Source of the DNA: Myxococcaceae bacterium
Lineage (GTDB): Bacteria > Myxococcota > Myxococcia > Myxococcales > Myxococcaceae
Reading direction: 5' to 3'
Length of the DNA: 40,638 nt
Assembly: GCA_019686135.1 (NCBI GenBank)
Contig: JADGHL010000037.1
Span: 1 to 40,638 of the forward strand
Under the pieces are notes generated by a model. That model worked only from the letters and a program-made list of their open reading frames with translations. It made no database searches and was not told the origin of the DNA. Of the stretch, positions 4,619 to 40,638 are shown one piece after another (position 1 is the stretch's first letter; the number at the start of each line of letters is the position of its first letter). The position numbers were made by a program, and so were the translations under genes.

Positions 4619-4625
4619 CTCAGGC

Positions 4626-6131: not shown

Positions 6132-6185
6132 CGGGGCGCCTATACAAGCGCGCCCGGCGGCTGTCGACGCCGTTGACCGGAGCGC

Positions 6186-6410: not shown

Positions 6411-6570
6411 CGTCCGGATTGCGTTGATGAACTCCACCGCGAGGTCTTTCTTGCTCTTGAAATCGTCCACGCCGCCCCCACTCCCGTCGCCCCCTGCGAC
6501 GCGTTGCAATCTATGCACGCCCCCGGCGCCGCCTACTGGGTCCGGCAACCCATCGGAGTTCTTCACGGTT

Positions 6571-6602
6571 TTTGACAGTCTGAACGTCGACGTGCGATAA
6601 AC
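6571..6602 (+). promoter_or_regulatory. Candidate sigma-70-like promoter for the small ORF at 6630
   Basis: A TTGACA hexamer is followed by a 17-18 nt spacer and a GATAAA -10-like hexamer. The gene's ATG is about 30 nt downstream and is preceded by GGCGAGG. The surrounding region is lower-GC. Confidence 0.3.
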
Positions 6603-6629
6603 ATGCCCTATCGCGAAGGCGAGGTTCCG

Positions 6630-6821
6630 ATGTTCACGGGCGTGAAGGTGTTCTCGGCGACGAAGGCCAAGGAGCGCGAGGAGCTGGGGGAGAACGTCAC
6701 CCGCTGGCTGAGATCCAACTCGGATCTGGAAGTCGTCGATCGCGTCGTCGTCCAGAGCAGCGACAACGAATTCCACTGCTACACGCTCGTCCTCTTCTAC
6801 CGGAACAAGTCCGAAGTGTAG
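6630..6821 (+). CDS. Small conserved hypothetical protein (63 aa)
   Basis: The product MFTGVKVFSATKAKEREELGENVTRWLRSNSDLEVVDRVVVQSSDNEFHCYTLVLFYRNKSEV has a globular, non-repetitive composition. A GGCGAGG Shine-Dalgarno sits 7 nt upstream. The gene is convergent with the amylase gene. Confidence 0.45.
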   Translation: MFTGVKVFSATKAKEREELGENVTRWLRSNSDLEVVDRVVVQSSDNEFHCYTLVLFYRNKSEV

Positions 6822-6833
6822 CCACCCCGGCCG

Positions 6834-8972: not shown

Positions 8973-8982
8973 CCGCCTCCGC

Positions 8983-12609: not shown

Positions 12610-12679
12610 GGGGGAGCCTCCGGAGGTCACCCGCCTGTGGGGCGGACGGGCACCTTAGACCACCGAGCCCCGCGTTCAT

Positions 12680-13972
12680 TCAAGGGCGAGCCACACTCTC
12701 CGGACTTCCGGTCGATGCGGGACCACGACTGCGATCGTCCTGCACGATCCTCACCGGGTAGGCGGCGCCGTGACGGTCGAGGTGACGCTCCACGAGCTCG
12801 AGGCCCATCCGCTGTGGCCCCCGGTCGTCCGGCGCGCGCACGTCGATCGCCTGCCCCTTCCGGTGGACCACCACGCGACGGCCGAAGTCCGCGGCGAGCT
12901 CCCACCATCGCGCCGACCCGCCCTGCTCTGCGCCGCCGGCGCGGCGGGGCGACGTCAGGTGGATCTCCTCCCAGGGGCCGGTCTGCTCGAGGAACGCCTC
13001 CAGCCGGTCGAGGTCGTCGTCGCCATCGCCCTTCAGCCAGAACGGCACCGCGCCCGCGCGCAGCACCTGTCGCGGGTGCACATCGACGAAGGAGCCGACC
13101 GCCAGCGGCCGTTGGCCCAATCCCGCCTCCTGGTACCACTGCGCGTACAGCGCGGCGACCAGCGGGGAGAGATCGTCCGGTTCGTCGAAGAGGATCCGCG
13201 CCAGCTTGAAACCGTGCTCGCGCGCGAACGCATCGAGGTCATCCCGCAAGCCCGGGTCGAAGCCCCACAGTGCCTCTGGCGCCAGCTCGGCGGGTCCGGG
13301 CGGCCGCCATTCGCCGAGCAGGTCCGCGCGGTCGCTCCCCTCGTCGTCCGGGTCGCCCTGAGACTGCTCTCCGAGCGCGCCGAGCTGGAAGAGGTGCCGT
13401 GGGCCCACGCGGATCATCGGCCACGCGCGGCGGCACTCGATCACGAAGATGGTCCCGCCCGGCGCGAGCGCCTCCCGCAGGAACGCCGCGTACGCCTCGC
13501 CCAGGCGGATCCGGTTGAGGTGGAAGGACACGGCGCGCGTGCGCTCCCCTTCCGCCGGATCGTGCACCTGGTACAGGCGCCACTCCGGGTTCGGTTCCAG
13601 AACGCAGCGCCCCCACTCCGCTCCGAACGCGATGGCGTCCTTCGGGGTGCCCGGGCGCGCAGCGACGGGCAGAAGCACTGTCTGCGGAAGCCACGGAATC
13701 CGGAGCGCCGCGCACAGGTGCACGAGCGCGCCGGACGCCGAGCCGATCGCCACCGCGCGATGGCGCCCGGGCGGGTACAGCCCGGCCGACCACCGGGCGA
13801 TCGCCTCGGCGCGCACCCGCCGCAGCGCTCGCGGCGCAACGCGCTTGGGCGCTCGGCGCGCCTGCACCCAGGGCGGCGGAGGGAGCCGCGCCGGTTCCGT
13901 CCATGCGTGCGCGGTGGCGCGGAGGAAAGCGGTGGACACGTCCACGTCACACAGAAGGCGCCGCACCCTCAT
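12680..13972 (-). CDS. Hypothetical protein (~430 aa), divergent from glgE
   Basis: The composition is protein-like, with many Trp, Phe and Asp (GTIFVIECRRAWPMIRVGPRHLFQLGALGE, WLKGDGDDDLDRLEAFLEQTGPWEE). The overlapping plus-strand ORF shares codon boundaries but is Arg-rich and garbage-like. The start is uncertain, with candidates at 13972 (MRVRRLL) and 14134. Confidence 0.45.
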   Translation of the reverse strand: MRVRRLLCDVDVSTAFLRATAHAWTEPARLPPPPWVQARRAPKRVAPRALRRVRAEAIARWSAGLYPPGRHRAVAIGSASGALVHLCAALRIPWLPQTVLLPVAARPGTPKDAIAFGAEWGRCVLEPNPEWRLYQVHDPAEGERTRAVSFHLNRIRLGEAYAAFLREALAPGGTIFVIECRRAWPMIRVGPRHLFQLGALGEQSQGDPDDEGSDRADLLGEWRPPGPAELAPEALWGFDPGLRDDLDAFAREHGFKLARILFDEPDDLSPLVAALYAQWYQEAGLGQRPLAVGSFVDVHPRQVLRAGAVPFWLKGDGDDDLDRLEAFLEQTGPWEEIHLTSPRRAGGAEQGGSARWWELAADFGRRVVVHRKGQAIDVRAPDDRGPQRMGLELVERHLDRHGAAYPVRIVQDDRSRGPASTGSPESVARP

Positions 13973-14148
13973 CTCCGGCTCCGCGAATCGCTGCGCCCGG
14001 CCATGCGCATCCCCTTCGGGAGAACGTAGCGATCGCCCCGGATCGGGAACCCGGAGCCACCCAGCGCCAGGCCGCCCGACAACCGGACGTTGGAGGTGGG
14101 CTCCGGGCGTGCTGCGTCGCCTCTGCGTGATCAACGTGTCCGCGGGCC

Positions 14149-16152
<2,004 letters not shown>

Positions 16153-24004: not shown

Positions 24005-26449
24005 TTAGGCATTTTCTCCACGGAGGGCGGCGCCCAGGCGCTCGTTCACCTGCTCGACGATGCGCTTGTGCGCCTCGTTCACCTCGGCATCGGTGAGGGT
24101 GCGGTCCTCCGCCCGGTAGCTCAACGCGAACGCCAGGTTCTTCTTGCCCTCCGGGATGGGCTGGCCGGTGTACACGTCGAAGACGCGCGCGTCCTCCACC
24201 AACTTCCCGCCCGCCTGGAGGATCACCTCGCGCACCTCGGCCGCGCTCCGGGCGGCGTCGACCACCACCGCGAGATCGCGCAGCACCGCAGGGAAGCGGG
24301 TCAGCGCCACCGCCTTCGGGCGCAGCACCGCCGCCTTCTCCAGGCGCGCCACCTCCAGATCGAACAGGAACGTCCCTGACGGCAGATCGAGCGCCTTGGC
24401 CGCCGCCGGGTGGAGCTCCCCCAGCGTCCCCAGCGTCACCCCGTTGGCGAGGTACACCCGGGCGCTCGCGCGCGGGTGGTACGGCGCCATCTCCACCGGC
24501 GCGAACTTCGCGTCCTCGATCCCCAGCGCGCCGAGCACGACCTCCACCGCCCCCTTCGCGTCGTAGAAGTCGATCCGCGCATCCGGCGACGTCCAGTGCC
24601 GGCCTGCCCTGAGGCCCGAGAGCACGCCCGCGACGTGCAGCACCTCGCGCGCCACCGGCCGGTGCTCGTCTCCGCCGTCCTCGTTCTGCTCGTAGGTGCG
24701 GCCCCACTCGTACAGCCGGACGCTCTGGGCTTGATGCCGCACGTTGTGCGAGAGCGCCTGCAAGAGCCCCGCGTACATCGTCGTGCGCATCACCGACTGC
24801 TCGGCGGAAAGCGGGTTCTTGAGTGCGATCGCCTCGATGGGCTTGCCCAGAAGGGGCAGGTCGCGGAGCGTCAGCCAGCTCAGCTCCTTCGGCGAGACGA
24901 ACGAGTAGCTGACCACCTCCATGAACCCCGCGCCCGCGAGCGCAGTGCGGATCCGCTCCTCCACCCCGGTACTGGAGGGCTCCATCTCCAGCCGGGCGGG
25001 GGCGCGCGGCATCACGCTGGGGATCCGGTCGTACCCGCGGATCCGCGCGACCTCTTCGATCAGATCCTCCTCGCGGTCCACGTCCACGCGCCAACCGGGC
25101 ACCTCGAAGGTGGCCCGGGCCGCGTCCTCGGCCACCGCCTCGAACCCGAGCGCCCCGAGGATCCGCTTCGTTTCCTCCGCGGGCACGTCCACCCCGAGCA
25201 GCCCGCCCACGCGCGCATACGGCAGCGTCACGCGCCTGCGCGGCTGCGGCTTCGGGTACACGTCGATGGCGCCCCGGAGCACCTGCCCCCCGGAGAGCTC
25301 GGCGATGAGCGCCGCCGCGCGGTCCAGCGCCTTCGGCACCGCCTCGATGTCCGCCCCGCGCTCGAAGCGGTGCGAGGCCTCGGTGTGCAGCCCGTGCCGC
25401 CGGGCCGACCGCCGCACCGAGGACGGCTGGAACCACGCGCTCTCCAGGAGCACCCGCGTGGTCTTCTCCGTCACCTCGGAGTCGGCCCCGCCCATCACGC
25501 CGGCGATCGCCTGGGGACGGTCACGGTCGGCGATCACCAGGTCGTCCGGATCCAGCGCGCGCTCTTTGCCATCGAGCGTCGTGAGCTTCTCGCCCTTCTT
25601 CGCCAGCCGGACGACGATCTCGGGCCCCGCCAGCTCGTCGAGATCGAACGCGTGCAGCGGGTGCCCGTACTCGAGCAGCACGTAGTTGGTGACGTCGACC
25701 AGGTTGTTGATCGCCCGGATCCCGCAGGCCTTGAGGCGGTCCTGCATCCACTGCGGAGACGGCCCCACGCGGACGTTCTCGATGATCCGCGCCGCGTACC
25801 GGGGCGCGCGGTCCAGCGCATCGATGCGGACCTTCGCCCGATCGCTCGCCGCGCCACCGCCCTCCTTCAGATCCGCCGCGGGGTACCGGAGCGGCACGCC
25901 GAAGATGGCCGCCACCTCGCGGGCAATGCCCAGGTGCGAGAGCGCGTCGGACCGGTTGGGGGTGACGTTGACCTCGAACACCGTGTCGTCCAGCCCGAGC
26001 GCCTGGACGATCGGCAGGCCCACCGGCAGCGCGGGGTCGAGGATCATCAGGCCCGAGTGCTCGTCGTCGAGGCCCAGCTCGCGAGACGAACAGAGCATCC
26101 CGAAGCTCTCCACGCCGCGCAGCGTCGCCTTCTTGATCTTCACGCCCCCGGGCAGCGTGGTGCCCACCGTGGCGAGCGGCACCTTGTCGCCCACCTTGTA
26201 GTTCTTCGCGCCGCACACGACCTGCAGCACGCCGTAGGCGCCCGCGTCGACCCGGGTCACCGAGAGCTTGTCCGCGTTGGGGTGCGGGCGGGACTCGGTG
26301 ATGAGCGCCACCACCACGCCCTCCAGCCCCTCCCCGGCGCGGATCTGACCTTCGATCTCCAGGCCCGCCATGGTGAGCCGGTGCGCCAGCTCCGGCGGCG
26401 GCACCGCCGCGTCCGCGTAATCCGCCAGCCACTTCAGTGAGAGCTTCAT
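24005..26449 (-). CDS. pheT: Phenylalanine--tRNA ligase beta subunit
   Basis: The 814-aa product begins MKLSLKWLADYAD, the canonical PheT N-terminus, and has tRNA-binding, B3/4, B5 and FDX-ACB domains in order. The start shares one nucleotide with the pheS stop (TGATG). The 996-aa track ORF includes upstream antisense read-through. Confidence 0.9.
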   Translation of the reverse strand: MKLSLKWLADYADAAVPPPELAHRLTMAGLEIEGQIRAGEGLEGVVVALITESRPHPNADKLSVTRVDAGAYGVLQVVCGAKNYKVGDKVPLATVGTTLPGGVKIKKATLRGVESFGMLCSSRELGLDDEHSGLMILDPALPVGLPIVQALGLDDTVFEVNVTPNRSDALSHLGIAREVAAIFGVPLRYPAADLKEGGGAASDRAKVRIDALDRAPRYAARIIENVRVGPSPQWMQDRLKACGIRAINNLVDVTNYVLLEYGHPLHAFDLDELAGPEIVVRLAKKGEKLTTLDGKERALDPDDLVIADRDRPQAIAGVMGGADSEVTEKTTRVLLESAWFQPSSVRRSARRHGLHTEASHRFERGADIEAVPKALDRAAALIAELSGGQVLRGAIDVYPKPQPRRRVTLPYARVGGLLGVDVPAEETKRILGALGFEAVAEDAARATFEVPGWRVDVDREEDLIEEVARIRGYDRIPSVMPRAPARLEMEPSSTGVEERIRTALAGAGFMEVVSYSFVSPKELSWLTLRDLPLLGKPIEAIALKNPLSAEQSVMRTTMYAGLLQALSHNVRHQAQSVRLYEWGRTYEQNEDGGDEHRPVAREVLHVAGVLSGLRAGRHWTSPDARIDFYDAKGAVEVVLGALGIEDAKFAPVEMAPYHPRASARVYLANGVTLGTLGELHPAAAKALDLPSGTFLFDLEVARLEKAAVLRPKAVALTRFPAVLRDLAVVVDAARSAAEVREVILQAGGKLVEDARVFDVYTGQPIPEGKKNLAFALSYRAEDRTLTDAEVNEAHKRIVEQVNERLGAALRGENA

Positions 26450-27486
26450 CAGAACTGCCTCAGGAAACGGATGTCGTTCTCGAACAGCGTGCGCAGATCG
26501 TCGATGCCGTACCGCAGCATCGCCATCCGCTCGACGCCCATGCCGAACGCGTAGCCGCTGTACTTCGACGGGTCGTAACCGGCGGACCTGAACACGTTGG
26601 GGTGGACCATCCCCGACCCCAGGACCTCCAGCCACCCGGTCTGCTTGCACACGCGGCAGCCCTTGCCGGCGCAGATGACGCAGGAGACGTCCACCTCCGC
26701 GGAGGGCTCGGTGAACGGGAAGAACGAGGGGCGGAAGCGCGTCCGGGTGTCGGCACCGAAGAACGCGCGGACGAAGGCATCCAGGGTCCCCTTCAGCTCG
26801 GCGAAGGTGACGCCCTCGTCGACGAGCAACCCCTCCACCTGGTGGAACATCGGCGAGTGGGTGAGGTCGCTGTCGCGCCGGTAGACGCGGCCGGGCGCCA
26901 CCACGCGCACGGGCGGCTCTGTCTGGAGCATCGCGCGGATCTGCACGGGGGATGTGTGCGTGCGCAGAAGAACCGGCTGCGTCGACCGCACCCACGGGGC
27001 GTCCACGAAGAAGGTGTCCTGCATGTCCCGCGCGGGGTGGTCATGCGGGAAGTTGAGCGCCTCGAAGTTGTGCCAGTCCTGTTCAATCTCCGGGCCCTGG
27101 GCGATCTCGAACCCCAGCCGCCGGAAGATCTGCACGATGTCGTCCATCGTCCGGGTCACCGGATGGCGGTGCCCCGGCGGGATCTGCCGGCCCGGGAGGG
27201 TGACGTCGACCTTCTGGCCCTTGAGCTCCGCCTCCAGCTTCTTCGCCTCGGCGCGCTGCACCGCTTCGGCGAGCAGGCCCTCCAATTCGGCCTTGATCCG
27301 GTTGGCCACCTCCCCCACGCGGCGGCGCTCGTCCGGCGCCAGCTTCCCCATCCCGCCCAGAACGGCGCTCAGCTCGCCCTTCTTGCCGAGGTACTTGATC
27401 CGCAGCTCTTCGACGCGGCCCGGATCGTCCGCCCCGCCGATCTCCCGGCGCGCCGTCTCGGCGATCGCGTTCAGTCGGTCCTGCAT
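26449..27486 (-). CDS. pheS: Phenylalanine--tRNA ligase alpha subunit
   Basis: The 345-aa product has class II aaRS motifs (FRPSFFPFTEPSAEVDV, GMGVERMAMLRYGIDDLR) and an N-terminal coiled coil. Confidence 0.9.
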   Translation of the reverse strand: MQDRLNAIAETARREIGGADDPGRVEELRIKYLGKKGELSAVLGGMGKLAPDERRRVGEVANRIKAELEGLLAEAVQRAEAKKLEAELKGQKVDVTLPGRQIPPGHRHPVTRTMDDIVQIFRRLGFEIAQGPEIEQDWHNFEALNFPHDHPARDMQDTFFVDAPWVRSTQPVLLRTHTSPVQIRAMLQTEPPVRVVAPGRVYRRDSDLTHSPMFHQVEGLLVDEGVTFAELKGTLDAFVRAFFGADTRTRFRPSFFPFTEPSAEVDVSCVICAGKGCRVCKQTGWLEVLGSGMVHPNVFRSAGYDPSKYSGYAFGMGVERMAMLRYGIDDLRTLFENDIRFLRQF

Positions 27487-29146: not shown

Positions 29147-31081
29147 CTACGGCAGCGCCGCCTCCTTCGCCAGCAGCTCTTCGAACGCCTCCGCGCTCAT
29201 GAACTTCAGATCCTCGCCGCCGTAGCGCCGGGGCGAGACGCCCTTGTCGGCGACCTCGCGATCGCCCACCACCAGCGTGAACGGGATCTTGTGGATCTGC
29301 GCCTCGCGGATGCGGGCGTTGAGCGTCATGTTCCGTTCGTCCAGCTCCACGCGGAAGCCCCGGGCGCGGAGCCGGTCCCTCATCGCCCGCGCGTAATCGA
29401 GGTGGCGGTCGGCCACGGTGACGATCGTCGCCTGCACCGGCGCCAGCCACACCGGGAACGCGCCGGCGAAGTGTTCGATCAGGATGGCGATGAAGCGCTC
29501 GAACGACCCGTAGATGGCGCGGTGGATGACCACCGGGCGGTGCTCGGCGTTGTCCTCGCCCACGTAGGTCAGGTCGAACCGGTCCGGCGACGGCGCGAGG
29601 TAGTCCACCTGGAAGGTGCCCAGCTGCCACTTGCGGCCGATCGAGTCGGACACGTCGAAGTCGAGCTTCGGGCCGTAGAAGGCGCCCTCGCCCGGCTTGT
29701 GCTCCGCCTGTAGCCCGAGCGCATCCAGCGCGCCCTTGAGCGCGGCCTCGGCGCGATCCCACATCTCGTCGGAACCGAGCCGCTGCACGGGCCGGGTGGA
29801 GAACTTCACCGCGTACTTGAGCCCCACCGCGTTGTAGACGCGATCGAGCAGCTGCACGAAGCGCTTGGCCTCCTCGGTGATCTGCGACTCCATCGCGTAG
29901 ATGTGCGCGTCGTCCTGGGAGAACTGCCGCACCCGCGTGAGCCCGCCGAGCGATCCGGTGGCCTCGTTTCGGTGCAGCGGATCGAACGTGGAGAAGCGCA
30001 GCGGGAGATCGCGGTACGAGCGCTTCTTGAACCCGTACATCAGGTGGTGGGACGGGCAGTTCATGGGCTTGAGCGAAAAGTTGTGCTCGTTCCCCTCGCT
30101 GTCCCAGACGAGGAACATGTTCTCCTTGTACTTGCCCCAGTGGCCGGACTGCTCCCAGAGCAGCTTGGAGAACATGAGCGGCGTCTTCACCTCCTGGTAG
30201 CCGTTCTCGGCGGTGAGCTTGCGCATCCAGTTGGAGAGCACCGTGTAGATGGCCGTCCCGCGCGGCAGCCAGAACGCCGCTCCCGGCGCCGCGGGGTGGA
30301 ACTGGAACAGCTCGAGCTCCTTGCCGAGGCGGCGGTGATCGCGCTTCTTCGCCTCCTCTAGGCGTTTGAGGTATTCGTTGAGCGCCTTCTTGTCGAAGAA
30401 GGCCGTGCCGTAGATCCGCTGCAACATCGCGTTGCGCGAATCCCCGCGCCAGTACGCGCCGGAGGACGACAGAAGCTTGATCACCCCCACCTTGCCGGTG
30501 GAGGGCCCGTGCGGCCCGAGGCAGAAGTCGACCCAGTCGCCGTGCCGGTAGAGCGTCAGCGTCTTCGCGCCGCGGGCGACGATGTCCTTGACGATCTCGA
30601 CCTTGTATTTCTCCCCCAGCTTCTCGAAGAGCGCGATCGCCTCGTCCGCGCTCACCTCTTCGCGCACGAAGGGGAGGTCCTTCTGGATCTCCTTGTTCGC
30701 CTCCGCCTCAATCCGCTCCAGGTCCTCGGGCGTGAACGGCGTCTCTTTGGCGAAGTCGTAATAGAAGCCGTCCTCGATCGCCGGGCCGATCGTCACCTGC
30801 GTGCCCGGGAACAGCCGCTGCACGACCGAGGCGACGATGTGCGCCGCGTCGTGGCGGATCACCTCCAACGCCTCGGGGTTGCGATCCGTGAGGATCTCCA
30901 GCTTCCCGTCCTCGAGCAGCGGCCGGGCGAGATCCATCTCCTGGCCGTTGAGCCGGGCGACGACCGCCGCCTTCGCCAGGCCGGGGCCGATCTGCGACTT
31001 CACGAACTCATGGATGGTGGTCCCGCGGCGGATGGACTTCTGGGAACCGTCGGGGAGCGTGACCGTGACCTGATCTGCCAT
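29147..31081 (-). CDS. thrS: Threonine--tRNA ligase
   Basis: The 644-aa product has a TGS domain N-terminus ([13 protein letters not shown]), a class II core ([14 protein letters not shown]..., [26 protein letters not shown]) and an anticodon-binding C-terminus. Confidence 0.9.
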
Positions 31082-31120
31082 CTGCCAATCTCCGCCCGGA
31101 GCGATACGAAGGCCCAGGGC

Positions 31121-31162
31121 ACAAAAGACGTGGGCGGCACAGCCTCGTCGACCGTGCCGCCC
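31121..31162 (-). terminator. Intrinsic terminator downstream of tRNA-Val
   Basis: A perfect 9-bp stem GGGCGGCAC/GTGCCGCCC with a 13-nt loop is present. On the minus strand it is followed by GTCTTTTGT. Confidence 0.45.
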
Positions 31163-31180
31163 GCCTGAAGGTTCAACGCC

Positions 31181-31255
<75 letters not shown>

Positions 31256-31371
31256 AGATGTCGAAGGCCGGCGCGAAATAGCAGTCGACCTGTGGGGCGT
31301 CAAGGCAATGCACGGGAGGGAACCTGCCGGACCGACGCGCGCATTCCGACACTGCTGACACTGGGGGGCGT

Positions 31372-32070
31372 TCAGCGGCGGGGCTCCCCCGCCAGGCGGA
31401 GCGCCGTGCGGATCACCGCGTCGAACATCGCCGGGGTCAGCCGCCCCGTCTGCGTGTTCTGCTGGCTGACGTGGAAGCAGCCGAGGATGAGCGGCGCGTC
31501 GCCGATCCGGGCGATGGCCCCTTGCGCGAACTTCGGCCGCGGCTTCGGCAGCCGCTGGCCCGCCCGCTCCAGGTGGCGCAGCGTGGAATCCCAGGCGTGC
31601 GCGCCGAGCGCGAGGAACACCCTGGGGCGAAGGAGCGCCAGCTCGCGATCCAGCCAGTGGGCGCAGGTGCGGAACTCCTCTGGCGTGGGCGCGTTGTTCG
31701 GCGGCGCGCAGCGCACCGGCGCGGTGATGAAGACGTCATGGAGGGTCAGCCCGTCGTCGCGGCTGGTGCTGGTGGGCTGATTCGCCAGCCCGGCGCGGTA
31801 CAGGCGGGCGAAGAGGAAGTCCCCGCTCCGATCGCCCGTGAAGAACCGCCCGGTGCGGTTGCCTCCATGCGCCGCCGGCGCCAGGCCGATGATCACGATC
31901 TTCGCCTTCGGATCGCCGAAGCCCGGCAGAGGGCGTCCCCAATAGGTCTGATCGCGGAACGCGCGCCGCTTCTCGGTGGCGACCTTCTCCCGCCAGGCGA
32001 CCAGCCGCGGACAGGCGCGGCAGGTGATGATCTCCGCATGAAGTCGGGCGAGGGCGTCGCGCGTCTGCAC
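31372..32070 (-). CDS. Uracil-DNA glycosylase superfamily protein, Fe-S type (family 4/5; GLAPA motif suggests family 5 UDGb-like)
   Basis: An N-terminal Cys pattern is present (CRACPRL), followed by a motif-A-like IIGLAPAAHGGNRTGRFFTGD and a C-terminal HVSQQN-type motif B. Family 4 has GE(A/G)PG at this position, whereas GLAPA is the family 5 signature; that distinction is from memory. Confidence 0.7.
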   Translation of the reverse strand: MQTRDALARLHAEIITCRACPRLVAWREKVATEKRRAFRDQTYWGRPLPGFGDPKAKIVIIGLAPAAHGGNRTGRFFTGDRSGDFLFARLYRAGLANQPTSTSRDDGLTLHDVFITAPVRCAPPNNAPTPEEFRTCAHWLDRELALLRPRVFLALGAHAWDSTLRHLERAGQRLPKPRPKFAQGAIARIGDAPLILGCFHVSQQNTQTGRLTPAMFDAVIRTALRLAGEPRR

Positions 32071-32131
32071 GGAGTGGATCTATCGCGCGAAAGCCCACAG
32101 AGGCGAGGCACGATTCCGTTCCCACGGGCGG

Positions 32132-35100
32132 CTACCGGGCCGGTTCCGCGGGCGGGGGGATCGCCTGCAACAGCTGCAGCGCTTCGTTGACGTGCTGCCA
32201 CACCTGAATGGCGCGCAGCGATCCCCCGCCCTCCTCCTTGAGGCTGCGGCGCGCCATGCGGGCCAGCGGAGCGAGCGCGCGCTGCACCAGCTCCACCTGA
32301 CGGTCGTAGGCGGCCGGATCCGGACGGGCATCGGGCGCGGGCGCGCGGCGCACCGCCTCCTGCAGCACCTCCGCGGACAACGACGTGGGACGTTCGGCGA
32401 TCGCCCGCAGCACCTCTTCGAGTCGCATCAGGTACGGCGTCAGATCCGGTGCGGCCGGTCCTTCCGCGCGCGGCGCCTCCTGCGCCCGGGCTGGCTGCGC
32501 CGCCGCCTTCGCCAGCTCCAGGAGCGCGGCATGGAGGGCGTCCAGCTTCATCCCCAGCGCGGTGAGCGCGACCGAGGACGGCGCGACGTCCGGCGCGCGG
32601 GCAAAGGGCGTCTCCCCCAGCGCCGCAGAGGCCTGCGACACGGCGTCGCGGATCCGCCCGAGCTGCTGTTCCAGCGCAGAGAGCCCGCCGGTGACCCGCG
32701 CCACCGGATCGTCCTCCCGCCCGCCCAAGAGCTGCAGCCGCGCCCAGCTCCGTTTGATTTCCTCCCACCGCGCCCGCTGTTCCGGGGTCAGTTTCCCGCG
32801 CAGCTCGGCCAGCTTGAGCAGGTTCTGCTCCGCACCGGTGGTGAGCGTCTGCGCCTCGCCGGCGTAGTGATCGTCGATGACCCGGTCCAGCTCCTCGTCG
32901 GTCATCGCCGATACGACCTTGTCGGCGATCTTCGCCATGTTCCGGTAGCTGCCCTGCAGCTTGAAGGGCGGCTCGGTGCGGAACCGGTCGTCCTGCGAGG
33001 CCGAGGCGATGTACGCCTGGTTCACCTTGAGCAGCGTCTGCTGCACCTTGAACAGCCGCTGCAGCACGGCGGTGATCTCCTGCACCTCCACCGCCGACCA
33101 GGCGTACGACAGATCGGTGAGCGGGATCTGTTCGCCCTGGGCCATCCGGATGAGCTTCCAGGTGTCCTTCGGATCGCGCCCGGCGAGCGGCGCGGTGACC
33201 GGGTTGGAGGTGAGCGCGTTCTCCACGTAGCTGAGCGCGAACAGCTCCTCCCGTCCGCCGAGGATCTCGCCGAGGTTGTAGGTGTCCGCGCGGTTGGCGA
33301 GCATGTCCGGGATCCGGAAGCGCTCGCCGGACTCGGTGTACGGGTTGCCCGCCATCACCACCGCGAACTTTTTGCCCCGAAGGTCCCAGGTGCGGCTTCG
33401 GCCCTTCCAAACGCCCTCCACCTTCCGCTGCCCGTCGCACAGCGAGATGAACTTCTGCAACAGCTCGGGCGAGGTGTGCTGGATGTCGTCGAGGTAGAGC
33501 AGCACGTTGTTGCCCATCTCGAAGGCGAGGTTGATCCGCTCCACCTCCTGCCGCGCCGCGAGGTTGGGCGCATCCTCCGGATCCAGCGAGGTCACCTCGT
33601 GCCCCAGCGCGGGGCCGTTCACCTTGACGAACACCAGCCCCAGCCGCGCGGCCACGTATTCGATCAACGTGGTCTTCCCGTAGCCGGGCGGGGAGATCAC
33701 GAGGAGCAGGCCCATCCGGTCGGTGCGCTTGGTGTCGCCGGCGGTGCCCAGCTGCTTCGCGAAGTTCTTGCCGATGAGCGGCAGGTACACTTCGTCGATC
33801 AACCGGTTGCGCACGAAGCTGGAGAGGATCTTCGGCTTGAGCTCGTCCACCCGGAGGCGGCGGCGCTCGGCGTCGAGGATCTCCCGGAGCCGGGCCCGGA
33901 AGGCGCGGTACTTCGGAGCCCCCGTGCGCAGGTAGCCAAAGAGCCGCTCCGAGAACTCGTCCAGGGCGAGCGTGAGCTTCTGGCCACTGATCCGCGGGTG
34001 GTTGCCGAGCAGCCCGTCCAGCTCCACGACCGTGCGCGCGCTCGAGACCTCGCGGTCGATGGCCCGGTCGCACAGGATGATCGCCTCGGCCTCGGCGATC
34101 TCCGCGCCGGCGCCCTGCTTCGCCGCGTCCGCCCACGCCGTGAGCCACTCGTGCACGAGCGCGCGCTGTTCGCGCCACCGCCCGTTCAGCTGGCGCAGGT
34201 CCTCCTCCAGCTCCCGGCGGGTCCCGGCGCGTTCGAGGTGTGCCCAGAAGGCGTCCTTGTGCGTCACCGACGCCTGGGCGGTGGTGAAGCGTGGCTGCTC
34301 GCGGGTGAGCTCTTCGACGAGGTAGCGGGCGGCGAGCTGCGCCTCGTCCCCGCTACACGGCGCGCCCACCCGCTCCGCGAACGCGCAAAGCTCCGGCGTC
34401 AGCTCCTCCGCCAGCGACAAAAGCGCCGAGGTCCGCGCGAGGTGATCGCGCAGCCGGCCGTAGCTCACCGCACGGCGATGCCAGATGGCGCGCGCGTGCT
34501 CGTCCTTGTGCCACGCCCAGAAGAGCTGCGCGTGCGCCCGGGCCACAGGTCCGAAGCGCAACAGCCCCGCGGTCTGCCGGAGCGCCAGCACCGCGGCGAG
34601 GATCTTCGCCGCATCCGCGTCGTGGACCCCGCGCTCGTAGCCTTCGTCGTAGCGCTCCTGCGCGTACGAGCGGACGAGCGGCAACAGCGCCTCGGCGTCC
34701 GCGCTCGAAGGCAGCGGCGGTGTGCGCCCGTCCTCCGCGTCGAAGAGCATCGACGCGGCCAGGTACTCGCCGCGGTAGATCGCCTTCGTCTCGGAGACCA
34801 GGTGCTGGTCCCAGAACGGCCGCGTGTCCTCCAGCGCCTCCAGGTTCAGCGGCTCATAGAAGTCCGTCCCGGTCAGATGCAGCGCCAGCGCGCCATCGCG
34901 TGGCACCACGGTCAGCTCCAGCGGCTGGGTGTTGACGTTGAACCGGTGCGGCCCGAGCTTGATGACGCTGGCCCCGTCCTCGAACAGGTCCTGCTTGTCG
35001 CGCAGGATGCGGGCGGCGTCCTGCTTCGTCTGCTTGAGGCGGGAGGTGAGCTCGTCGGCGCGCACCGAGTCGCCCAGCGAAAGGAGCTGTTCGGCGATGG

Positions 35101-37555
35101 CCTGGGCCTTGTGCACCATCGCGTCCGAGGCGAACCAGGCGTTGAGCTCGTCCTCGGTCTTGAAGGTCTCCGCGCGCCGCTTCAGCCCCTGAAGGATCCG
35201 GTCCGCGGCCTCGAAGAGGTTCTGCGCGCGGCGCTGCCGTTCGTCGAGGAGCTGCTGCCGCTTCGCCCCGAACGCCTCGTGCAGCTCCTCGCGCTTCTTC
35301 GCCAGCTCGGCGACGAACTCGTCCAGCTCCCCGAAGCGGCCCTCGAGCTCCTCCAGCTGCACCATCAGCCGGGAGAGTTGCTCGTCGCACTTCTCCGGCG
35401 TGTCGCTCTGGCCGATCGCGCTCTCGATCGCCTGGCCGAGCAGCTTGAACTGGGCGGCGAACTCAGCGCGGCCTTCCCGGCCGGCGATCTCCTTGCGGCG
35501 CGCCTGCACCGTGGCGCGGACGCGGTTGAGGTGGCTGAAGACCTCGCTGATGCCCTCGAGGATCTTCGCGCGCGCGACCGGGTCGCCCACCTGCAGCTGC
35601 CCCACCACCTCCGCCAGCACGTTGAGCCCGGCGGAGGTCTGCTCCAGCTCGGAGGTGATGGGGACGAGATCCGCGCTCCGCTCCGCCTTCTGACCTGCTT
35701 CGAGCAGCGCCCCGAGCTTCGCGGTCAGGGGCGCCAGCGCGTCCTTGTCGAGCAGAAAGCTCACGCACGCCTGCGAGAGCACGTCGAAGTGCGCCTGGGT
35801 CGCCCGCTCCAGCTCGGCGATGCGGTTCAGATCGACGTATCGGACCTCCTTGAGGGTGATGAGGTGCCCGCGGTGCCGGCGCAGCCCATCCAGCGCCTCC
35901 ATGAACTCCGACACCGAGGTGAGCGAGTCGGGGAGCACGCCGTCCACGCGCCGGGCCTGTTCGGCCTCGGCCTCGGCGAGGACCTCGCGCGCCTTCTGCT
36001 TGAGCGCCTGGACCTTCTCGAACTCGGCGACGATCAGATCCGCCGAGCGGCGCAGGTCCTCCACCGGCTGGGCGAGGTTCGTCTCCGGGTTGCCCAGCCA
36101 GTGGTAGCCGTCCAGCATCCGGGTGCAGGCGGCGATCAGATCCTCGAACGCGCGGCGGCTGGTGTGCTCCGCCTCCGCCATCCGCTTGATCGTGTAGGCC
36201 TCGGAGATCCCCCGCACCAGCTCAGCGTTACCGATCTTCGAGAGGAACGATCCGTCGGCCGGCTTCGACTGCGCGGCGTGCTCGGCCGAGACGAACGGCG
36301 TCTGCCAGATCTGCACCGGGTGGACGCGCTGCGGCTCGTCGCCGGCGGAACGGAAGACGATCATCTTTCCGTCGCCGAAGAGCGAGTAGCCGTGACACTG
36401 AATCGGCGTGGCCACCTCGCGGCGAACGAGGTTGTACGGCAGCAGCACGTACCGGCCCTCGTTGGGCTCGAAGAAGATGTAGAGGACGTCCTCGCCGTTG
36501 GGCGAGCGGATGGCGCGGCGGAAGATGAGCCCTTCGGGGCGCTCGTCGAAGACCTTGTAGTCGCCGGTCTGCAGGTAGTAGCCGCCGGGGAAGATGATCC
36601 CCTGGTCCTCGGGGAGCTGGATGCAGGCGTTGCCGATCGCGTCGATCCGCACCACGTGGCGGGTGCGGGTGTTGAAGACCAGGTACCGCCAGGTCTCTTC
36701 GCGGAAGGGCAGCACCTTGAGGAGGATCAGCGTGCCGACCTTCGCATAGTGGATCTGCGCGTCGTCGAGCGACTGGTTCTTGTCCTCCACCTCCTCCCGG
36801 TAGATTCCCAGCCCGTCCTCGGTGTTGTTCTCCACCTTCACGGTGAGATCGCCGCCCACCGTCTCCACGAACACCTCGTTGAGGATGTTGACGTGCGGGT
36901 GGCGGCCGCGGACGAACTGGTCGCGGCCGGTGGGGATCCACTCGAAGTCGTGTGACGGCGGGAACACGTTCTCCCGCTCGCCCGCGTTGTCGATGTAGGT
37001 CGCGCGGCCGGACGGATCGAGGTTGAAGCGGAAGACCTTCACGTCGCGGGCGGACTCGCCCACCTGGAAGACCATCAGCAGCCGGCCATCGAGGTGCCGC
37101 AGGTAGGACAACCGCGTGCCCTTGTAGTAGCGGTACAGCTCCTGGAAGTCCTTCACGAAGCGCGGGTCGGCGAGGAAGCCGCCCGCCTCGGTGGCCGGGA
37201 CCTCGGAGAGATCGAACCCGTCTGCGGTGGGCTCGAACCGGTGGAGCGACATCACGTCGGAGACCTGCGTCTCCGACTTGAGCCCGATGAAGACGTTGAA
37301 CCCGAACAACAGGTGCCGGCCCACCGACTTGATGTCGCGGGGCACGCAGTTGTGCTCGGTGCGGACGCGCTCGTTTCCGAGGATCGCCAGCTCGGCGCCG
37401 GAGAAGAGCTGCTTGCGGCGCTCGTTGAGCGCGTCCGCGCGCGCGCCCAGCTCCTTCGCGTGGGCCAGAAGGCGCGCGCGGATCACCTCATAGGAGCCGC
37501 CGTCCAGCTCCGGGCCGGCGCTCGCGGCCTCCCCCTGCGGCTGCTCGGTGGCCAT
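32132..37555 (-). CDS. Giant (1807 aa) multidomain protein with a single MoxR/dynein-type AAA_5 ATPase module; function unknown
   Basis: Walker A is LLVISPPGYGKTT (DNA ~33668-33685). Walker B is VLLYLDDIQH. MoxR-like sensor motifs are present (AGNPYT...RIPDMLANRADTYNLG). There is a ~480-aa N-terminal beta-rich region, a ~650-aa helical/coiled-coil middle and a ~440-aa helical C-terminus. A GAGG RBS overlaps the flotillin stop. The plus-strand 1587-aa ORF is an antisense artefact. Confidence 0.8.
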   Translation of the reverse strand: MATEQPQGEAASAGPELDGGSYEVIRARLLAHAKELGARADALNERRKQLFSGAELAILGNERVRTEHNCVPRDIKSVGRHLLFGFNVFIGLKSETQVSDVMSLHRFEPTADGFDLSEVPATEAGGFLADPRFVKDFQELYRYYKGTRLSYLRHLDGRLLMVFQVGESARDVKVFRFNLDPSGRATYIDNAGERENVFPPSHDFEWIPTGRDQFVRGRHPHVNILNEVFVETVGGDLTVKVENNTEDGLGIYREEVEDKNQSLDDAQIHYAKVGTLILLKVLPFREETWRYLVFNTRTRHVVRIDAIGNACIQLPEDQGIIFPGGYYLQTGDYKVFDERPEGLIFRRAIRSPNGEDVLYIFFEPNEGRYVLLPYNLVRREVATPIQCHGYSLFGDGKMIVFRSAGDEPQRVHPVQIWQTPFVSAEHAAQSKPADGSFLSKIGNAELVRGISEAYTIKRMAEAEHTSRRAFEDLIAACTRMLDGYHWLGNPETNLAQPVEDLRRSADLIVAEFEKVQALKQKAREVLAEAEAEQARRVDGVLPDSLTSVSEFMEALDGLRRHRGHLITLKEVRYVDLNRIAELERATQAHFDVLSQACVSFLLDKDALAPLTAKLGALLEAGQKAERSADLVPITSELEQTSAGLNVLAEVVGQLQVGDPVARAKILEGISEVFSHLNRVRATVQARRKEIAGREGRAEFAAQFKLLGQAIESAIGQSDTPEKCDEQLSRLMVQLEELEGRFGELDEFVAELAKKREELHEAFGAKRQQLLDERQRRAQNLFEAADRILQGLKRRAETFKTEDELNAWFASDAMVHKAQAIAEQLLSLGDSVRADELTSRLKQTKQDAARILRDKQDLFEDGASVIKLGPHRFNVNTQPLELTVVPRDGALALHLTGTDFYEPLNLEALEDTRPFWDQHLVSETKAIYRGEYLAASMLFDAEDGRTPPLPSSADAEALLPLVRSYAQERYDEGYERGVHDADAAKILAAVLALRQTAGLLRFGPVARAHAQLFWAWHKDEHARAIWHRRAVSYGRLRDHLARTSALLSLAEELTPELCAFAERVGAPCSGDEAQLAARYLVEELTREQPRFTTAQASVTHKDAFWAHLERAGTRRELEEDLRQLNGRWREQRALVHEWLTAWADAAKQGAGAEIAEAEAIILCDRAIDREVSSARTVVELDGLLGNHPRISGQKLTLALDEFSERLFGYLRTGAPKYRAFRARLREILDAERRRLRVDELKPKILSSFVRNRLIDEVYLPLIGKNFAKQLGTAGDTKRTDRMGLLLVISPPGYGKTTLIEYVAARLGLVFVKVNGPALGHEVTSLDPEDAPNLAARQEVERINLAFEMGNNVLLYLDDIQHTSPELLQKFISLCDGQRKVEGVWKGRSRTWDLRGKKFAVVMAGNPYTESGERFRIPDMLANRADTYNLGEILGGREELFALSYVENALTSNPVTAPLAGRDPKDTWKLIRMAQGEQIPLTDLSYAWSAVEVQEITAVLQRLFKVQQTLLKVNQAYIASASQDDRFRTEPPFKLQGSYRNMAKIADKVVSAMTDEELDRVIDDHYAGEAQTLTTGAEQNLLKLAELRGKLTPEQRARWEEIKRSWARLQLLGGREDDPVARVTGGLSALEQQLGRIRDAVSQASAALGETPFARAPDVAPSSVALTALGMKLDALHAALLELAKAAAQPARAQEAPRAEGPAAPDLTPYLMRLEEVLRAIAERPTSLSAEVLQEAVRRAPAPDARPDPAAYDRQVELVQRALAPLARMARRSLKEEGGGSLRAIQVWQHVNEALQLLQAIPPPAEPAR

Positions 37556-37564
37556 GGCGCAGCC

Positions 37565-39622
37565 TCAGCGCGTGGGCCGGGGCTCGACGTTGGAGGACTC
37601 GCCTGCGACTGGGCCCCCGCGCTCCGCGGCCATCTTCGCCATCAGCGCGGCGAGCGCGACGTGGGACGCGTCCTGCGCCACGCCCGGCCGGGAGAGGATC
37701 TCCTTGAGATCGTCCGGGAGGCTGCGGTCGCCCTCGAGGTACGGCTTGAGCGCGGTGCGCAGCGCGCCGGAGCTGTCGATCGCCGCGTCTGCGGACTGGC
37801 CGAGCGTGACCGCCCGCATGAACTGGTCGAAGAACTTCCCCTCGCCGCCGACGATGTGGATCTTCGCGTTGCCCATCGCCTCGGACATGACCTGCGCCTG
37901 GCTGGAGGCGATCTGCGTGCGCGCGGTGATCGACGCCAGCTCCACCTCCTTCTCCTTCTGCAGCCGGAGCCGGTACTCCTCGTGCGCGCGGGAGGCCTCG
38001 TCCAGCGCCTTCATCGCCTCCGCCTTCTCGGCGATGCCCTTCGCCTCGGCGACCAGCTTCTCCTGGATCGCCACCGCCTCCGCCAGGCCGCGCAGCTTGA
38101 TCGCCTCCGCCTCGGCCTGCTCCACGCGCACCTGCGCCAGCCCCTTCTCCACGTCGCCCGCGGCCTCGGCCAGCTTCCGCTCCTTGATCACCCGGGCCTC
38201 GGCCAGCCCCACCTTCTCGATCGCCACCGCGTCGGCCTCCTTCACCCGCACCTCGCCCAGCCCCTTCGCGCTGTGCTCGGCCTGGATGCCCTCGGCCAGC
38301 CGGATCTTCGCCTTCGCCAGCCGGTCCGCCGCCTCCATCTCCGCGTCGGCGAGCTGCAGCTTCTTGCGCGCCTCGATCTTCGTGACCTCCTCCGAGGCCT
38401 CGGCCGCCTTGATCTCCTTGACCAGAAGCTCCTGCGCCTCGGCCTCGGCGTGGACGATGGCCGCCTCCTTCTGGCGCTTCGCCTCGGCGATGAGCCGCAG
38501 GTCTTTGATGTTCTCCTCCTCCTGCGCCACCGTCTTGTCGACCGCAATCCGCGTGCGCACCACGTCGGCGATCGCCTTGCGCTCCACCTCCAGCGCCTTC
38601 TCCTTGGCGATCCGCTGCAGCTCCACCTCGCGCTCGCGGGCGATCGCCTCGAGCTGACGATCCTTTGCGACCTTCTCGCTCTCGATCCCGACGATCCGCT
38701 CGCGGTTCTTCTGCGCCACCTCCACCTGGCGCAGCTTGTTCTGGTCGTTGATCAGGATCTCCTCTTCCGCCTTGATGCGCGCGAGCTGGGCGCGGGCGTG
38801 CTCTTCCGCCTTGACCCGTTCGGTCTCCGCCGCCTCGCGGGCGCGGATGGTCTCGATCTCACGCTTCTGCTTCGCCTCCGCCTCCGCCTGCTGCCGCTCG
38901 AGCGCCAGCACCGCCTCGTTGGCTTCGACGTTCTGCTTGGTGATGGCCTTGCGCTCGTTCTGCCGGAACTCGTTGGTGAGGATGTTCTGCGCCGCGGTCA
39001 TCTCGGTGATTTTCCGGATGCCCTGCGAGTCGAGGATGTTGTCCTTGTCGAGCAGCTCGATCGGCGTCTGCTCGAGGTAGTCGATGGCGACGTCCTCCAG
39101 CATGTAGCCGTTGAGGTCCTTGCCGATGACCTCGACGATCTGATCCTTGAAGTGGTCGCGCGACTTGTAGAGGTCTTCGAAGTCCATCCGCTTGCCCACG
39201 GTCTTGAGGGCTTCGGAGAACTTGGCGACGAACAGATCCTCCAGCGTCTTCGGATCCGAGGCGCGCGCGCAGCCGATCGACTGGGCCACCTTCAGCACGT
39301 CCTCCTCGGTCTTGTTCACCCGCACGAAGAACGCGACCTTGATGTCCGCGCGGATGTTGTCCTGGCAGATCAGCCCTTCCTTGCCGCGCCGGTCGATCTC
39401 GATGGTCTTCAGCGAGATGTCCATCACCTCGGCGCGGTGGATGACCGGCAGCACCAGGCCGCCGTTGAAGGTGACCTTCACGTCCCGGACGCCGTTGATG
39501 ATGAGCGCCTTGCCCTGATCCACCTTGCGGTAGAGCTTGACCACCAGCCAGGACATCCCGAGCGCGAGCACCACCAGGGCGGCCGCGCTGCCACCGACCA
39601 GGACAATCGTGTTGTTATCCAT
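37565..39622 (-). CDS. Flotillin-like SPFH/band-7 protein (YqiK/FloT-like) with a long Ala/Glu/Lys-rich coiled coil
   Basis: An N-terminal TM helix is followed by YRKVDQGKALIINGVRDVKVTFNGGLVLPVIHRAEVMD, the flotillin signature. An SPFH domain and EA-repeat-like coiled coil follow (AEAEAKQKREIETIRAREAAETERVKAEE...). ATG 39622 (MDNNTIV) is preferred. A GTG at 39682 is the alternative start. Confidence 0.8.
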   Translation of the reverse strand: MDNNTIVLVGGSAAALVVLALGMSWLVVKLYRKVDQGKALIINGVRDVKVTFNGGLVLPVIHRAEVMDISLKTIEIDRRGKEGLICQDNIRADIKVAFFVRVNKTEEDVLKVAQSIGCARASDPKTLEDLFVAKFSEALKTVGKRMDFEDLYKSRDHFKDQIVEVIGKDLNGYMLEDVAIDYLEQTPIELLDKDNILDSQGIRKITEMTAAQNILTNEFRQNERKAITKQNVEANEAVLALERQQAEAEAKQKREIETIRAREAAETERVKAEEHARAQLARIKAEEEILINDQNKLRQVEVAQKNRERIVGIESEKVAKDRQLEAIAREREVELQRIAKEKALEVERKAIADVVRTRIAVDKTVAQEEENIKDLRLIAEAKRQKEAAIVHAEAEAQELLVKEIKAAEASEEVTKIEARKKLQLADAEMEAADRLAKAKIRLAEGIQAEHSAKGLGEVRVKEADAVAIEKVGLAEARVIKERKLAEAAGDVEKGLAQVRVEQAEAEAIKLRGLAEAVAIQEKLVAEAKGIAEKAEAMKALDEASRAHEEYRLRLQKEKEVELASITARTQIASSQAQVMSEAMGNAKIHIVGGEGKFFDQFMRAVTLGQSADAAIDSSGALRTALKPYLEGDRSLPDDLKEILSRPGVAQDASHVALAALMAKMAAERGGPVAGESSNVEPRPTR

Positions 39623-39712
39623 CGTGTTCGGACCTCGCGATCGCGTGAAGGAGACAGCGGACAGGACCGCGCTTCGTAGCACGATCCGGGAGAAAGACGC
39701 CCGAAGGGCCCG

Positions 39713-40495
39713 TCAATTGCGTGCCGCGGACCGGGAGGACCGCGACAGGTGCGCGCGCGCCATCGCCTCGGCGAGCCGCGGATCGCGAAGCTGACTCACT
39801 TCTTCCGGGAGCAGCCACTCCACCGGTTCGATCTCGTAGGCTTCCTTCTGCTTGTCGTACTCGAGCAGGAGCACCTGGTCGCCCTTCTTCAGCGTGTTCT
39901 CCCGGGTGCAGAAGATGGGGAGCACCAGCCCCGCGCCCCCGTCCTCGAGGTGCGCCTGACCGAACTTCGCGTCCACGCGAAGGGAGGAGACAATGGCGAC
40001 CTTGCCGAGGAGGTGGCGGCGCTTCGGTGCAGTGCGGATGGTGAAGAGCGGCCTGAGCGGTCGGGCGGTCACGCTGGAGAGCACGAACGCAGAGACCAGC
40101 GCCAGCACGAGAATGAGCCCGCCGCCGATCCACGGACCGAGAAATCCACCGAGCGCTGGGCCCAAAAACCACGCGCCCAGCATGGAGGTGATCCACCCCC
40201 AGACCGTGAGGAAGGTCACGATCATGGTGGCGGGGACCGTGCCGAACCCCAGCGCTTCGAGGAGCGCGCCCTTCCCCTCCAGCCCGTCGTGGACATGCGC
40301 GTGCGCGTCCGCCACGCCCGCCTTCGCGTCGATCCCGTCGATGAGCCCCGCCTTCGCGTCCAGCGCGCCGTCGCCGCCCAGCTCGATGCCCACCGCGCCC
40401 ACCAGCACCAGCAGCCAGTAGACCAGCACCACGATCAGCAGCGTCGTGAAGATCGCCGTCGGGAAGCTGAACGCGAGCGCGAGGAACGTCGACAC
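39713..40495 (-). CDS. NfeD-like / YqiJ-like inner-membrane protein (multi-TM N-terminus, C-terminal OB-fold-like domain)
   Basis: It sits upstream of and co-oriented with the flotillin gene, as in yqiJ-yqiK and nfeD-flotillin pairs. Several TM helices are present. The C-terminus LLGKVAIVSSLRVDAKFGQAHLEDGGAGLVLPIFCTRENTLKKGDQVLLLEYDKQKEAYEIEPVE resembles the NfeD beta-barrel. The start is a GTG. Confidence 0.6.
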   Translation of the reverse strand: MSTFLALAFSFPTAIFTTLLIVVLVYWLLVLVGAVGIELGGDGALDAKAGLIDGIDAKAGVADAHAHVHDGLEGKGALLEALGFGTVPATMIVTFLTVWGWITSMLGAWFLGPALGGFLGPWIGGGLILVLALVSAFVLSSVTARPLRPLFTIRTAPKRRHLLGKVAIVSSLRVDAKFGQAHLEDGGAGLVLPIFCTRENTLKKGDQVLLLEYDKQKEAYEIEPVEWLLPEEVSQLRDPRLAEAMARAHLSRSSRSAARN

Positions 40496-40638
40496 GGGCC
40501 GGAATTCAGCACGCCGCCGCCGGCAGGGGAAGCCGGCCCCGGCGCGGCGGCGCGTCGTGGCCGGTGGTGGAGCCGGTTGGGACTACGTCCGCGCCGCCCG
40601 GCGATTGCGTTCACGAAACGCATGCGGGCTGGGGATCG

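Follow-up and report, generated by a model that had tools for sequence, protein, structure and literature searches.

Positions 1 to 40,638 of contig JADGHL010000037.1 (assembly GCA_019686135.1, Myxococcaceae bacterium), a stretch of ~70% G+C that is referred to here as the window, contain on the minus strand a gene for an 1807-amino-acid (aa) AAA+ ATPase. The protein belongs to the BacE/DUF3686 family, and its gene is the third in a conserved operon of the order yqiJ/nfeD-like, flotillin, ATPase; the window carries the abbreviated form of this operon, without a pspA gene (Table 1). Both the family identity and the flotillin-operon context are secure. A preliminary description of the window, made from its letters only, had placed an open reading frame (ORF) of this length here, and the ORF list and translation show that it is real. 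The description missed that the family is already catalogued (DUF3686, BacE) and mentioned in the literature, and it also overlooked the conserved flotillin/NfeD context. The gene is an ordinary orthologue within this family and does not represent a new type of system.

The ATPase gene starts with ATG, has a Shine-Dalgarno-like GAGG 8 nucleotides (nt) upstream and begins 9 nt after the stop codon of the preceding gene on the same strand, which encodes the flotillin-like protein. The translated sequence is 100% identical to an NCBI entry termed 'DNA repair ATPase [Myxococcaceae bacterium]', and all peptides quoted in the preliminary description are found in it, with the two beta-rich ones at aa 359-381 and 401-421. 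The Pfam match to DUF3686 (PF12458) covers 448 of the 448 profile positions (E 6.3e-205), and DUF7902 is recognized further along the chain. The ORF is not a chance one, as it has more than 7000 scored homologues with full-length identities of 44-74% across phyla, the values being 55-74% for Myxococcota with related groups and 44-51% for gammaproteobacterial members.

In a pattern scan with each species represented by a single genome, at least 598 species were found to carry the family, and they include Myxococcota, Actinomycetota, Gammaproteobacteria and Acidobacteriota; plasmid records extend the range to Deinococcus, Hymenobacter, Vibrio and Proteus. When aa 1-500 were searched exhaustively, 782 representative clusters were obtained, in all of which the DUF3686 domain is N-terminal. 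Complete members are 1590-2036 aa long, have the same Pfam set and are 44-74% identical over 90-100% of their length. The invariable position of DUF3686 and the narrow range of complete lengths point to one architecture, which consists of DUF3686, DUF7902 and a single C-terminal AAA+ module. In alignments across phyla, conservation of the protein is high, with hardly any gaps, between aa 20 and ~1625. One homologue of 1890 aa (P0093) has an additional PilZ domain (PF07238), which hints at a cyclic di-GMP input in some members. No solved relative was found in the PDB by single-sequence and family-profile searches; all that these returned were matches at the level of the P-loop and artefacts caused by coiled-coil designs.

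Gene context and motif occurrence were counted in 80 loci from Myxococcota, Actinomycetota, Gammaproteobacteria and Acidobacteriota. In 76 of the 80, a flotillin gene precedes the ATPase gene on the same strand, and in most it is adjacent; three of the four exceptions come from sequences without any upstream DNA. The median gap between the flotillin stop codon and the ATPase match is ~100 nt, and in five loci it is ~2.2 kb. At one further locus (L012) the flotillin gene lies ~6.5 kb upstream of the ATPase gene, with other ORFs between them. The flotillin-like protein of the window displays 29% identity to Escherichia coli YqiK over 435 aa (E 1e-37) and also matches human flotillin-1 (9bq2; E 0.002), and there is a weak match to the NCBIfam FloT model. 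No C-terminal element specific to the ATPase-linked flotillins could be singled out from the conservation profile, which was uninformative.

The first gene of the operon encodes a membrane protein whose homologues occupy the same slot in 63 of the 80 loci. In 13 loci, mostly those without a homologue match, a divergent ORF of ~200 aa is found in this slot. Pairwise comparison of the window's protein with E. coli YqiJ was not significant. It is assigned as YqiJ/NfeD-like because of its position, its topology and the weak Pfam YqiJ_N match displayed by a homologue (locus L042). To look for further partners, six-frame ORFs around the loci were clustered all-against-all after the three core genes had been masked, and only clade-specific extras emerged: the divergent ORF in the NfeD slot of Actinomycetota, and DUF2170, PspA, rhomboid and phospholipase D-like (PLD) genes in Gammaproteobacteria. 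In the gammaproteobacterial loci a DUF2170 (YjfI-like/BacA) and PspA/IM30 pair is present upstream in 12, a rhomboid protease gene downstream in eight and a PLD-like (HKD) gene downstream in seven; DUF2170 and PspA genes are found in this clade only. Extended gammaproteobacterial operons span positions 3584-14649 of locus L042, 3389-14428 of L067 and 1722-11952 of L081.

The 1807-aa protein contains one P-loop module, as the preliminary description had stated; Pfam and two overlapping AlphaFold2 models agree on this. The models, calculated with 101-sequence alignments, cover aa 1-1000 (model A) and aa 851-1807 (model B), with a mean predicted local distance difference test (pLDDT) score of 87.6 and 86.2, respectively. 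The alpha/beta core of the module lies ~90 residues further along the chain than the range of aa 1195-1350 that had been proposed. Only the Walker A motif falls fully within that range, since Walker B starts at aa 1352, with its DNA overlapping only in part the span formerly assigned to the core. Concern had been expressed that the Walker motifs might prove unconserved, which would suggest a degenerate ATPase; Walker A is present in all 80 loci and Walker B in 78. The sensor 1 motif GNPYTE is found in 72 of 80 loci and ANRAD, with the putative arginine finger, in 77. By analogy with MoxR-type motifs, N1404 would act as sensor 1, R1422 as the arginine finger and R1538 as sensor 2. In model B a beta-hairpin separates the Walker B helix of the core from the sensor-1 strand. 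The core is the most conserved part of the protein (71-83% identity across phyla).

AAA-type profile matches are weak and confined to aa 1284-1407. With the whole protein, AAA (PF00004) scores 28.9 bits and AAA_5 (PF07728) 20.8 bits, which is under the cutoff of 22; the isolated segment reaches 24.2 bits with AAA_5. AAA and AAA_5 perform about equally, at 24-32 bits, on the isolated segment and in homologues, where AAA_5 scores 28-32 bits. The AAA_5 label used in the preliminary description is thus marginal by sequence match, but it agrees with the predicted structure, in which the nearest neighbours of the module are MoxR, midasin and dynein modules, with CbbQ and NorQ the closest.

The remainder of the chain consists of a beta-rich N-domain and long helical segments. 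In model A a helix at aa 21-51 is followed by ~27 strands between aa 57 and 418 (DSSP), and Foldseek relates the domain, with probabilities of 0.98-1.0, to the propellers of the clathrin terminal domain, prolyl-oligopeptidase and neuraminidase. The N-terminal ~480 residues had been read earlier as beta-rich and resembling a propeller; both points hold, and on the models the domain is best termed propeller-like, short of a proven propeller. The top Foldseek matches of the model of aa 1-1000 (positions 34556-37555) are membrane-coat proteins that combine a propeller with helical repeats, namely a nuclear-pore ring nucleoporin and the clathrin heavy chain; E is ~1e-6 but template modelling (TM) scores are ≤0.12, so that the resemblance is a loose architectural one only.

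Some 800 residues of conserved helical bundles, broken by two small beta elements, are predicted N-terminal to the AAA+ module. The modelled helices have pLDDT values mostly of 80-95, and those across aa 424-857 are long, the longest of 58 residues. After the small beta domain at aa 864-902, which is 53-63% identical across phyla, helices at aa 924-1160 precede the second beta element at aa 1168-1197 (model B). This second helical region is the least conserved structured part, with 27-43% identity and no gaps. The helical lid and C-domain at aa 1450-1625 is conserved, and the tail beyond it has pLDDT values below 50 at aa 1649-1660 and 1687-1745, with two moderately confident helices at the end (aa 1747-1798). 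The preliminary description had taken aa ~480-1130 and ~1370-1807 to be helical throughout; the long helices are real, but the two beta elements and the variable, low-confidence segment at ~1640-1745 do not fit this picture. Low-complexity disorder, which was also considered there, does not agree with helical regions that are 27-67% identical and almost gap-free across phyla. For the helical parts, the models suggest scaffolds of bundled helices in place of canonical coiled coils. A home-made heptad score, crude and weak as evidence, agrees with the bundle-type reading, as most helices are indistinguishable from shuffled sequences. These data are best explained by a five-part protein of ~200 kDa that resides in the cytoplasm: the N-domain is propeller-like and is followed by a pair of long helical-bundle scaffolds, a single AAA+ module of the MoxR type, a C-domain made of helices and, last, a flexible tail.

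Table 1. The ATPase gene, parts of its product and adjacent features, with positions in the window
Feature	Position	Strand	Basis or remark
BacE-family gene, 1807-aa DUF3686/AAA+ protein	32132..37555	-	ORF list and translation; stop codon 32132-32134
DUF3686 N-domain, aa 35-485	36101..37453	-	Pfam PF12458; model A pLDDT ~90+; Foldseek
First helical scaffold, aa 486-857	34985..36100	-	Long helices including aa 495-539, 659-716 and 745-795
DUF7902, aa 605-689, inside first helical scaffold	35489-35743	-	Pfam
Small beta domain, aa 864-902, VIKLGPHRFNVNTQPLELTVVPRDG...	34850..34966	-	Strands in both AlphaFold2 models
Second helical region, aa 924-1234, with beta element aa 1168-1197	33854..34786	-	Model B pLDDT ~95
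AAA+ module, aa 1240-1625	32681..33838	-	Alpha/beta core aa 1283-1450, then helical lid/C-domain
Walker A SPPGYGKTT, aa 1288-1296	33668-33694	-	Ser in place of the usual first Gly; 80/80 loci
Walker B LLYLDDIQH, aa 1352-1360	33476-33502	-	Asp-Asp for the usual Asp-Glu; 78/80 loci, DE in 0
Sensor 1 GNPYTE (N1404) and putative arginine finger ANRAD (R1422)	33272..33349	-	Invariant in two alignments
RIPDMLANRADTYNL, aa 1414-1428	33272-33316	-	Peptide of the sensor region in the preliminary description; found in translation
GSYRN, aa 1535-1539, putative sensor 2 arginine R1538	32939..32953	-	Invariant in alignments; 77/80 loci
Variable Ala/Pro-rich C-terminal tail, aa 1640-1807	32135..32638	-	8-24% identity, many gaps
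Flotillin-like partner gene (transmembrane segment, SPFH, long EA-rich helices)	37565..39682	-	Likely start Met21 at 39622
YqiJ/NfeD-like membrane protein gene	39713..40495	-	Hydrophobic N-terminal half, soluble beta-rich C-terminal part
Family-4-like uracil-DNA glycosylase gene	31372-32070	-	61 nt downstream of the ATPase gene, may be co-transcribed
Strong hairpin, 13 bp stem with 10 G-C pairs, then T-rich run	31132-31162	-	Between glycosylase gene and thrS

The Pseudomonas aeruginosa homologue (P0131) has 1746 aa, ~49% full-length identity and the same Pfam set (DUF3686, DUF7902 and AAA/AAA_5). Its gene is found in the order DUF2170, PspA, a 213-aa protein, a 688-aa protein, P0131, PLD, YaeQ, RecJ and M4 peptidase. 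This order matches that of bacABCDEF, and the homologue is therefore identified as BacE (PA14_16190). We take it to be PA3728, judging from gene order and from the numbering, in which lasB is PA3724; otherwise PA3728 was met in the literature only in mutation lists. As in the window, the bacE gene follows genes for a flotillin (BacD/PaFlo3) and a YqiJ/NfeD-like protein (BacC). The two loci differ in that the window has no PLD gene (bacF) downstream, its place being taken by the unrelated uracil-DNA glycosylase gene, and in that no sigma-54 site was seen in the 143 nt that separate the NfeD-like gene from the window end; sigma-54 matches in the window are fewer than expected by chance. No sigma-70-like promoter was found in 30900-40638.

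The bacABCDEF genes have been described as a 'biofilm-associated cluster' (PA14_16140 to PA14_16200; Wallart et al., 2024; PMC10948618). The levels of BacB to BacF go up together, 6- to 13-fold, when bacA is mutated, and reverse transcription PCR joins bacD to PA14_16190, which shows co-transcription (PMC10948618). Ravi et al. (2024; PMC11237479) mention a 'novel AAA+ ATPase with beta-propeller repeats' in operons with CesT/Tir (DUF2170), PspA, a YqiJ/YuaF protein and sometimes a PLD hydrolase. They also report that abbreviated operons, with band-7/flotillin and YqiJ/YuaF, sometimes this ATPase, and no PspA, are widespread. Architecture and operon match those of the window, but the ATPase is given one sentence there, without structure, motif analysis or function. 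The present models differ in favouring helical bundles over classic coiled coils and in locating the propeller-like domain at the extreme N-terminal end. Searches under the family name DUF3686/PF12458, or for a flotillin-linked 'DNA repair ATPase', found nothing in the literature, and those for flotillin with MoxR gave unrelated papers only.

Other parts of the window carry housekeeping genes, among them those for an alpha-amylase family enzyme, the GlgE maltosyltransferase, pheT and thrS, at 6834-9074 (-), 14149-16152 (+), 24005-26995 (-) and 29147-31081 (-). The region is not a mobile or defence island. The hairpin between the glycosylase gene and thrS is likely to be the terminator of the operon transcript, or is possibly part of the thrS leader. 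A 1215-aa ORF at 8983-12630 (-), which shares part of its length with other long ORFs of this GC-rich DNA, has DUF4369 (aa 975-1048) as its sole match.

Flotillin and the NfeD-like protein are the only universally linked partners of the ATPase, and the optional ones, PspA, rhomboid and PLD, are membrane-related; on this ground a machine that acts on or from a flotillin scaffold is proposed. The BacE family, with its MoxR-type module, may represent an ATP-driven remodeller working on or from flotillin/PspA scaffolds at the membrane, a proposal that we would put at about even odds. The AAA+ modules would assemble into a homohexameric ring, which is expected because CbbQ and NorQ, the closest structural relatives, form one. 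From this ring the propeller and the helical arms might extend and attach to the flotillin (SPFH) assembly at the membrane's inner face; in Gammaproteobacteria, the polymer of the co-encoded PspA may be a second target. Such scaffolds could then be remodelled, disassembled or recycled through ATP turnover when the membrane is under stress or being maintained. Conceptual parallels are offered by Vps4 acting on ESCRT-III/Snf7 and by FtsH inside HflK/C cages, where an AAA+ machine is linked, genetically or physically, to a scaffold polymer of the membrane. PspA is a member of the ESCRT-III superfamily, and HflK/C of the SPFH family.

Several points weigh against a remodeller of this kind. Deletion of the flotillin partner PaFlo3/BacD in P. 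aeruginosa has almost no phenotype (PMC13086221). Linkage alone may fit flotillin as a substrate, a platform or a regulator alike, and at one locus, from a Labilithrix metagenome-assembled genome (L059), the ATPase gene has no flotillin gene within 8 kb upstream. The Ser-first Walker A motif and the Asp in place of the catalytic Glu of Walker B are family-wide features that may make ATP turnover slow or switch-like. Moreover, no aromatic pore loop is evident in the AAA+ module, so that a threading mechanism is not indicated.

A different possibility is that the ATPase works as a chaperone of the MoxR type in the maturation or insertion of one specific client of the membrane or periplasm, with flotillin serving only as a platform that gathers the ATPase at membrane microdomains and the scaffold not being the substrate. 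CbbQ and NorQ provide precedents, as these MoxR ATPases activate specific enzymes (Rubisco and nitric oxide reductase, respectively), and the propeller-like domain could bind a client. The FloA-NfeD pair of Staphylococcus aureus is also reported, in work cited in PMC13086221, to stabilise unfolded proteins. MoxR proteins are ~250-500 aa in length and are normally paired with the gene of a VWA/MIDAS adaptor. The present protein departs from the MoxR class (CbbQ, NorQ and RavA) in its 1807 aa, with ~1240 residues N-terminal to the module, in the DD rather than DE of Walker B and in a marginal AAA_5 sequence match (21-32 bits). No VWA gene is present among the conserved neighbours in the 80 loci, and Pfam detects no VWA domain in the protein itself. 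Nor is any candidate client gene conserved across phyla, where only the flotillin and NfeD-like genes recur. The chaperone explanation is considered the less likely one.

Remodelling by a hexamer also has to be weighed against a force-generating motor or tether, a monomer or dimer similar to a cut-down dynein or midasin, in which the helical region is a lever or stalk and no hexameric ring is formed. The ~800-residue helical scaffold preceding the AAA+ module is linker-like, and dynein heavy chains are among the top Foldseek matches; the TM-scores to dynein, however, are ≤0.12. Dynein and midasin (Rea1/Mdn1) have six concatenated AAA modules in one chain, all of them needed for the ring, whereas there is a single one here, with no MIDAS domain and no microtubule-binding stalk. 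A lone AAA+ module depends on neighbouring subunits for its arginine finger, and this residue is conserved (77/80 loci). A motor of this type is improbable.

An anti-phage or conflict system appears still less probable. Here the large ATPase, with the HKD/PLD protein as a nuclease-like effector, would inflict membrane or DNA damage upon infection. Giant nucleoside triphosphatases are common among defence systems, a PLD gene lies downstream in some Gammaproteobacteria, and the family has a patchy distribution in Pseudomonas that suggests horizontal transfer (PMC13086221). Against this, the PLD gene is missing from most loci and the neighbours in the window (thrS, pheT and glgE) are housekeeping genes. 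The ATPase, flotillin, NfeD-like and glycosylase proteins have no significant PADLOC match (best E 0.0045-0.0073, 13-14 bits), and no relative was found in viral contigs. Only 13 of 72,556 plasmid records were positive, most of them ≥0.4 Mb and several chromosome-sized. For a defence gene, 44-74% identity between phyla is an unusually high value.

The function implied by the database name, that of an SMC/SbcC/Rad50-like or RuvB-like DNA repair ATPase acting on damaged DNA, is the least credible of all: beyond the NCBI and Pfam names it can draw on the glycosylase gene next to the window's operon, on recJ two genes downstream of bacE in P. aeruginosa, on weak RuvB matches limited to the P-loop and on a weak match of the helical region to the LmuB model of PADLOC, but the RuvB matches extend over ~45 residues (17-19 bits against cutoffs of 282-299), profile scans of the Pfam/NCBIfam type detect no DNA-binding, nuclease, SMC, Rad50 or ABC domain, the module is structurally nearest to MoxR, midasin and dynein and not to RuvB or SMC, the conserved partners are all membrane proteins, and no literature in support of the name was found. 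The glycosylase gene and thrS were rejected as a repair context, since they are neighbours in 0 of the 80 other loci; this adjacency is coincidental, and the position of recJ is not conserved either. The name 'DNA repair ATPase' is thus unsupported, given that there is neither a repair domain nor a conserved repair neighbour and that the likeness to RuvB ends at the P-loop; our guess is that it was derived from coiled-coil similarity to SbcC-type COGs.

Remodelling of flotillin scaffolds can also be formulated in a bolder and more doubtful form. Bacterial flotillin (SPFH) assemblies might have in this family the first remodeller that is driven by ATP and dedicated to them, a MoxR-type hexamer of ~1.2 MDa whose six propeller-tipped arms would grip the flotillin/NfeD cage, together with PspA polymers where these are present, and would disassemble or reshape it in membrane repair. 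This is a tentative possibility; if true, the hexamer would be the bacterial counterpart of Vps4/ESCRT-III for SPFH scaffolds. The question bears on how bacterial flotillin and PspA scaffolds assemble, turn over and are coupled to energy, and a giant, highly conserved AAA+ ATPase whose gene neighbours that of flotillin, in no fewer than ~600 species, is the obvious candidate for the energy-consuming component. The family is annotated everywhere as 'DNA repair ATPase'; a corrected label, together with the domain map given here, makes the question directly testable in such tractable hosts as P. aeruginosa, Myxococcus and Streptomyces.

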